A stretch of DNA of 64,000 nt from Escherichia coli (GTDB lineage: Bacteria; Pseudomonadota; Gammaproteobacteria; Enterobacterales; Enterobacteriaceae). The stretch lies in the NCBI RefSeq assembly GCF_041248615.1, contig NZ_CP158426.1; one strand, written 5' to 3'. Position numbers and translations under genes: made by a program. The first letter of the stretch is position 1. Each line of letters starts with the position of its first letter. Positions 28,479 to 29,050 of the stretch are shown here, piece after piece. The notes beneath the pieces are model-generated. The model ran no database searches and was not told the origin of the DNA. It saw only the letters and a program-made list of their open reading frames with translations.

Positions 28479-29050
28479 TTACATTTCAGGTTGCGTTATG
28501 ACAGTCCCAACAGGGTGGTAGCGGTAGATCGTTGACAGTCCAATATCATAGATAATTGCCAGCCGCTTTCTGTCATACCCTTTCTGGAGCAATCTTGCGA
28601 TCTGCTCATGCTGCTCCTTCGTCAGTTTCGGGCGACGTCCTCCAACTCTCCCTTGTGCTCGCGCAGCAGCCAGTCCTGCCAGCGTGCGCTCAACTATCAG
28701 TTCACGCTCCATTTCTGCCAGTGCACCCATCATATGAAAAAAAACCTTCCCATCGGAGTGCTGGTATCGATTGAATCCGTCAGACTGCGAAAATTGACAC
28801 CTTTTGCGCGTAGCTCTTCTGTGAGAGCAATGAGGTGTTTCATTCTTCTACCCAACCGATCCAGCTTCCAGACCACCAATGTATCCCCTCTTTTAAGGCA
28901 CTTTAAAGCGCGTTTCAGGCCTGGTCGTTCCGACTTGGTTCCGCTCATTTTGTCCTCAAAAATCTGTTCACATCCTGCGCACATTAATGCATTGCGTTGC
29001 AAATCTGTGTTTTGGTCATTTGTTGACACACGTATGTAGCCAATCAGCAT
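28479..29050 (-). pseudogene. Gin/Pin/Hin-family serine DNA invertase, split by a frameshift in an A8/T8 tract (28737-28744)
   Basis: N-part MLIGYIRVSTNDQNTDLQRNAL...SPMGRFFFI stop; C-part MMGALAEMERELIVERT...HTH continues in another frame; T9 would restore a ~190 aa invertase. Confidence 0.85.

Follow-up and report, generated by a model that had tools for sequence, protein, structure and literature searches.

The serine DNA invertase gene at positions 28479 to 29050 (minus strand) is of the Gin/Pin family, and we found that it is split by a run of eight T residues (T8) on its coding strand into open reading frames (ORFs) of 106 aa and 84 aa. It is the final gene of a Mu-like transposable prophage in the window, i.e. 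the whole 64,000-nucleotide stretch of DNA that was analysed, which is 100% identical to the chromosome of Escherichia coli NRZ14408 (NZ_LT599825.1, 4515546 to 4579545). Judged by comparison with related sequences, the frameshifted gene is probably a recent, vertically inherited loss-of-function allele of a Gin/Pin-type invertase in this prophage. The gene has the following parts.

28479 to 29050, minus strand: serine DNA invertase gene, Gin/Pin family, with a -1 nt frameshift; 190 aa when restored
28737 to 28744, minus strand: frameshift site, T8 on the coding strand (A8 on the plus strand), at codons F103 to F105 and the start of helix E
28730 to 29050, minus strand: upstream ORF, 106 aa, catalytic domain with Ser9 in YIRVSTNDQ, ending in GRFFFI and a stop
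28479 to 28733, minus strand: downstream ORF, 84 aa, the rest of helix E and the HTH_7 DNA-binding domain

The plus strand at 28730 to 28749 reads TCATATG-AAAAAAAA-CCTTC, which places the A8 exactly at 28737 to 28744, and this run is the only homopolymer of at least eight bases in the 64-kb window. The 106-aa ORF starts at the ATG at 29050, begins MLIGYIRVSTNDQ and continues through GGA AGG TTT TTT TTC ATA TGA to its stop at 28730, while the 84-aa ORF lies in the -1 frame, opens with ATG ATG GGT (protein start MMGALAEMERELIVERT) and ends in QPEM. Read from the sequence, the two ORFs overlap in an ATGA at 28730 to 28733, which holds both the stop of the catalytic ORF and the first ATG of the HTH ORF. 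Such an overlap could permit reinitiation and so give a free 84-aa DNA-binding fragment.

The corresponding gene of E. coli 510016 (CP025851) is identical at all of the other 572 positions and has one T more, giving the continuous 190-aa protein WP_000904922.1; adding one T to the window gene yields a protein identical to it. On the restored protein, the frameshift maps to the beginning of helix E, between F105 and H106. Pfam profiles match the restored protein as Resolvase (E 8e-51) and HTH_7 (E 1e-12) and the 106-aa ORF alone as Resolvase (E 4e-37), and HTH_7 together with the last 29 positions of the Resolvase profile falls in the separate -1 frame ORF. The preliminary description had read a Gin-family invertase whose halves lie in different frames on either side of this run and which one extra T would restore; its position and description of the break are exact, the CP025851 allele is the restored form it predicted, and the domain content and the 76% identity to Mu Gin given below bear out the family.

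Din-family catalysis needs the active-site serine, which is present as Ser9 in the YxRVST motif, with MLIGYIRVSTNDQ aligning to Gin residues 1 to 13. The family also requires a single polypeptide of about 190 aa with helix E and HTH_7, and the sequence as it stands does not encode one. The predicted products thus make the locus a Din-family pseudogene by descent, outside the intact membership of the family. In RefSeq, this gene is R2K29_RS22105 of NZ_LT599825.1, with the description "recombinase family protein, frameshifted"; the frameshifted invertase is already annotated by NCBI and is of a known kind. The P1-like phage RCS47 (FO818745.1, 36607 to 37147) has a cin gene that is likewise split by a 1-nt indel, into Cin part 1 and part 2. 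The RCS47 indel differs in being an extra A about 95 nt further downstream, outside the F-F-F tract. RCS47 thus shows that a phage which is complete in other respects can carry a frameshifted invertase gene.

The prophage carries genes for a DDE transposase, a MuB-like ATPase, Gam, Mor, a Mu-type head and a contractile tail with a P2/Mu-type baseplate. We placed its right end by the limit of homology and the flanking repeat.

28401 to 28478, no strand: right end of the prophage, starting TGATGCGCCGCGCGATAAATG and including the linked single-nucleotide polymorphism (SNP) at 28431

Where copies of this prophage sit at other chromosomal sites, their homology to the window ends exactly at 28401 (TGATGCGCCGCGCG), and a (T)CTTCA direct repeat flanks the insertion, the other end of which lies beyond the window. 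The Mu-like prophage is about 37.6 kb long, from 28401 through the end of the window at 64000 to about position 4581595 of NZ_LT599825.1. It disrupts a YadA-like adhesin gene, with one fragment at 28024 to 28404 and a second beyond the window on the far side of the prophage (16051 to 16863 of the flanking segment, in which the prophage ends at about 16050). This adhesin gene sits in a lambdoid prophage remnant that adjoins prfC and a dinI-like gene, so that one prophage is nested in another. A gene for a sigma-70 region-4-like HTH protein at 27507 to 27962 includes the T/C SNP at 27555.

The arrangement is that of Gin and the G segment of Mu, in that the prophage is of Mu type and the invertase gene comes last at its right end with its 5' end facing the fibre segment. 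The restored protein aligns with Mu Gin without gaps over residues 1 to 181 (3UJ3/4M6F, E about 1e-93), with 76% identity over 181 aa. Unlike in Mu, only 78 nt separate the invertase from the phage end, and there is no com/mom module between them. The components of the segment, together with a candidate enhancer, are listed here.

29105 to 29130, no strand: invertase-proximal 26-bp crossover site, GAGAGATAAACG-TT-GGTTTGGGGGAA, between the invertase start codon and the segment
30720 to 30745, no strand: distal 26-bp crossover site, within the tail-fibre gene; reverse complement TCCTCAATTACC-TT-GGTTTAGGAGAA
29114 to 29342, no strand: inverted-repeat arm of 229 nt, the conserved start of the alternative fibre tips, 86% complementary to 30508 to 30736
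30508 to 30736, no strand: second inverted-repeat arm
29122 to 29595, plus strand: silent alternative fibre C-terminal cassette, 157 aa, with a Collar domain
29602 to 30216, minus strand: sole tail-fibre assembly (chaperone) gene of the segment, 204 aa, in the same orientation as the expressed tip
30216 to 31853, minus strand: tail-fibre gene, of which the final ~170 codons (30216 to about 30731) belong to the segment and the constant part does not
28965 to 29032, no strand: candidate Fis-dependent enhancer, suggested by a position that matches the annotated enhancer of P7 cin (nt 19 to 86)

As in Mu, the crossover sites are 26 bp long with a 12-2-12 layout, and the fibre consists of a constant part and alternative tips. 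Both sites have the inner half GGTTTRGGRGAA and the central TT in common. They bound a 1.6-kb segment (29105 to 30745) and are embedded in the 229-nt inverted repeats (86%), whereas those of Mu are 34 bp; the segment also differs from that of Mu in its size, in having one chaperone gene instead of U and U', and in the frameshifted state of its invertase gene. In the present orientation, the silent cassette has neither a promoter nor an N-terminus. In the flipped orientation found in CP145671 and CP196245, the expressed tip is not followed by a chaperone gene of its own orientation, which sets it apart from Mu (U, U') and P1. The tail-fibre gene further contains a 168-nt tandem repeat at 30903 to 31331 (2.6 copies, 96% matches), the number of which differs among relatives and gives fibre proteins of 543 aa and 599 aa.

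The system also resembles Pin with the P segment of e14 and Cin with the C segment of P1 and P7, all of which pair a Din-family invertase with switching of tail-fibre tips. At the DNA level, the gene is 69-75% identical to cin and to invertase genes of the P2/P88 type. Conservation within the gene is highest in the region that corresponds to the enhancer annotated in P7 cin; identity to P7 cin is 78% in the stretch equivalent to nt 19 to 86 and 63-65% elsewhere, and the same stretch also encodes the conserved active-site motif. The gene here has its 5' end towards the site; in P1 and P7 it is the 3' end of cin that adjoins cixL. The F-F-F codons of cin are TTT TTC TTT, without a long run, unlike those of the window gene. 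The parts of the switch other than the invertase are intact.

We built the flipped junction in silico by crossover at the predicted centre of the sites and searched for it in genomes. Five complete genomes contain this junction, matching it over 651 nt at 100% identity, and at a query coverage of at least 80%, the flipped junction matched 213 records vs 68 for the window orientation. Among prophages with a run of nine T residues (T9; eight complete genomes), six have the window orientation and two are flipped (CP145671 and CP196245). Both orientations, as expected of a Din-family system, thus occur in relatives of the window strain. Hence, the segment inverts when the gene is intact, and the proposal that the invertase governs tail-fibre switching is upheld by the adjoining sites and by the two orientations. 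All T8 copies examined have the segment in one orientation, that of the window. This uniformity in three T8 insertion lineages is statistically indistinguishable from the 6:2 ratio of T9.

We surveyed the tract with an 82/83-nt probe around it; of 5,426 complete E. coli genomes, 594 gave a match, in 596 records. The exact matches were distributed as follows.

TTCTTTTTT: 589 records
T9: 8 records
T8: 1 record, the window strain only
TTCTTTTT: 0 records

In the complete genomes, 597 of the 598 allele calls are therefore in frame. A scan of IMG/VR that took tracts of any length from 7 to 11 found 14 copies only, all of them TTCTTTTTT; it provided no independent short-read support for T8 or T9. 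Tracts of T10 or T7 were not found, and T10 was likewise unseen in the census of complete E. coli genomes. The usual codons for F103 to F105 are TTC TTT TTT, and T9 results from a rare synonymous change of TTC to TTT at F103.

In the 718 nt that begin at the crossover site and stop at the end of the phage, one mismatch and the gap separate the window from a T9 allele, vs four to five mismatches and the gap for TTC alleles. Hence, T8 derives from T9, given that its flanking haplotype is nearest to T9 alleles. Origin from the majority allele by loss of the C in TTCTTTTTT was rejected on the same flanking haplotype. Frameshifts occur in one of nine T9-lineage records vs none of 589 records with the interrupted tract (Fisher p = 0.015); this enrichment fits a chance mutational hot spot and not a tract maintained by selection.

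The T8 run is present in the window and in four other assemblies (GCA_014863425.1, GCA_045583705.1, GCA_026614815.1 and GCA_949813105.1). GCA_014863425.1 has it at the insertion of the window, with the T/C SNP at 27555 as the sole difference in 6.3 kb, and four to five further contigs beyond the matches listed are similar to it; a literature search for GCA_014863425 and JACXXT gave no match. T8 lies at a second insertion site in GCA_045583705.1 and at a third in GCA_026614815.1, which is 100% identical to the window over 28401 to 30495. T8 copies thus have three unrelated flanks, each starting at the identical prophage end, and T8 lineages at different sites have no differences in 2.1 kb. The derived base 28431C is common to the window and these three assemblies, while 28431T is found in all T9 and TTC alleles examined (four T9 copies being sequence-checked) and in GCA_949813105.1. 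Hence, T8 is inherited, as several assemblies and three insertion sites have it together with the private SNP 28431C. In GCA_949813105.1, T8 is on the 28431T background in a locus with many indels and fragmented fibre genes; it is possibly independent but doubtful.

The exact 106-aa product is encoded on 92 contigs of a public collection vs at least 1000 for the intact protein. We discounted these 92 contigs as a recurrent real mutation because many of the copies are TTCTTTTT in error-ridden long-read assemblies. In the long-read assemblies GCA_0532916xx and GCA_0396152xx, 1 nt is lost in the T6 part of the tract (TTCTTTTT), and aroA and serC are fragmented. Such TTCTTTTT losses are systematic homopolymer errors that inflate the counts of "truncated invertase" in protein databases.

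Long-read platforms undercall long homopolymers, and the T8 call could in principle be an artefact in which the true tract is T9 and a PacBio consensus came out one base short at the region's longest homopolymer. This is distinctly unlikely, even though the run is the sole homopolymer of at least eight bases in the window and the sole T8 among the 596 complete-genome records, and even though low-quality long-read assemblies (GCA_0532916xx, with aroA and serC split) lose 1 nt at the same site. T8 and 28431C co-segregate in at least four separate assemblies and at three insertion sites, T9 was correctly called in eight complete genomes and one phage record, and about 125 kb inspected in the NRZ14408 assembly contain no other frameshifted gene. 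A later paper from the same group cites the NRZ14408 genome paper (as reference 31) for the Illumina library and PacBio RSII methods; it also describes correcting finished genomes with Illumina reads, which counts against a lost base although the PacBio RSII methods count for one. Hence, given the inheritance of T8 with 28431C and the lack of another frameshift in about 125 kb, a sequencing error, as the preliminary description had allowed, is unlikely, and the simplest reading of these haplotypes is that T8 is a real allele, passed on within a single phage lineage that is spreading. A real T8 might still be leaky, with a small full-length fraction of the protein being made and the segment inverting more slowly, either by RNA polymerase slippage that adds a U on U8/A8 or by -1 ribosomal slippage on U_UUU_UUC. 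Runs of 8-9 A/T cause transcriptional slippage in enterobacteria (Shigella mxiE, insertion sequence (IS) elements and the poly(A) rescue of endosymbionts), and the window gene is like these slippage genes, including those of IS transposases, in that an 8-9 T/A run joins overlapping frames and one added base restores the protein. The slippery sequence of programmed frameshifting and slippage genes is present as U UUU UUC within U8, a -1 shift or an added U restores the exact GRFFFHMMG / GRFFFH MMGALAEMERE junction of the intact allele and of Gin, and the T8 lineage retains an otherwise perfect ORF and still spreads. We nevertheless regard leakage as unlikely. The out-of-frame state is conserved in slippage genes, whereas here a singleton lineage stands against an in-frame majority (597 of 598 allele calls), and neither that conservation nor a stimulatory element of programmed frameshifting was found: the upstream GGAAGG is wrongly spaced for a -1 stimulator, and downstream RNA folding is like that of shuffled sequence (z = -0.06), on which ground programmed frameshifting was dropped as the main explanation. 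The intact downstream ORF is explained by the youth of the allele, with no differences in 2.1 kb between lineages, and every T8 copy is in one orientation. A sensitive DNA search found a second place in the NRZ14408 chromosome that is similar to the invertase gene, which may be a Din-family invertase acting in trans on the segment; the Din-family invertases Gin, Cin, Pin and Hin complement each other in trans. Hence, some inversion may persist, since U8 is prone to slippage and the chromosome has this second similar place.

A further reading of T8 and T9, also raised in the preliminary description, is that of a contingency locus, in which they are the states of a slipped-strand switch under selection, with the invertase, and through it fibre switching, going on and off reversibly and at high frequency. 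The frameshift in one of nine records of the T9 lineage vs none of 589 with an interrupted tract would agree with this, as would the possible independent T8 on 28431T in GCA_949813105.1. That second T8 is doubtful given its many indels and fragmented fibre genes, and the uninterrupted tract is rare, with TTCTTTTTT in 589 of 596 genome records and 14 of 14 IMG/VR copies. Neither T10 nor T7 was found. Among the assemblies, the uninterrupted tract is not conserved and its length does not vary independently of haplotype: the 28431C copies all have T8, and the four T9 copies checked have 28431T. In mismatch-repair-proficient E. coli, classical contingency tracts have a far higher mutation rate than A/T runs of 8-9. 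We looked in the literature for invertases under homopolymer control and found no relevant case. With the tract interrupted in 589 of 596 records, no T10 and a length that follows haplotype, the slipped-strand switch is not supported, and we consider it highly improbable. It is also very unlikely that T9 is an incipient "switch on a switch", whose hypermutable, slippage-prone run toggles or merely throttles the host-range invertase through rare U9 transcripts or -1 frameshifting; if that were so, the T8 lineage would be spreading with a mostly, but not irreversibly, fixed fibre type.

A loss-of-function allele with a locked segment, which the preliminary description had listed as a pseudogene in locked orientation, fits best, as T8 is inherited with 28431C at three sites and in one orientation. 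The proposed course begins with a synonymous C-to-T change in a minority haplotype, which would have produced the uninterrupted T9; one T would then have been lost to give T8, so that the reading frame changes where helix E begins. This would cut the catalytic domain (106 aa) off from the dimerisation helix and the DNA-binding HTH, and a catalytic fragment lacking helix E and HTH would be expected neither to dimerise normally nor to bind the crossover sites. With no full-length invertase, the 1.6-kb segment at 29105 to 30745 would keep its present orientation, and in this locked state the fibre would be fused to the tip cassette that the chaperone gene follows. In the window strain, invertase activity is thus most likely lost and the orientation frozen, as deduced from the sequence. 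The T8 phage lineage has spread all the same, probably by continued infection and transposition, as growth does not depend on the invertase.

A single silent change of TTC to TTT made a nine-base run that then frameshifted, an example of how a mutation without effect on the protein can make a site more mutable. A Mu-like phage lineage without a functional invertase gene has reached three or more insertion sites, which agrees with the enzyme not being required for spread. Neither the hot spot nor the dispensability would surprise a specialist. The gene should stay annotated as a frameshifted Gin/Pin invertase pseudogene, and the fibre segment of the prophage should be treated as probably fixed, expressing the tip that is followed by the chaperone gene.
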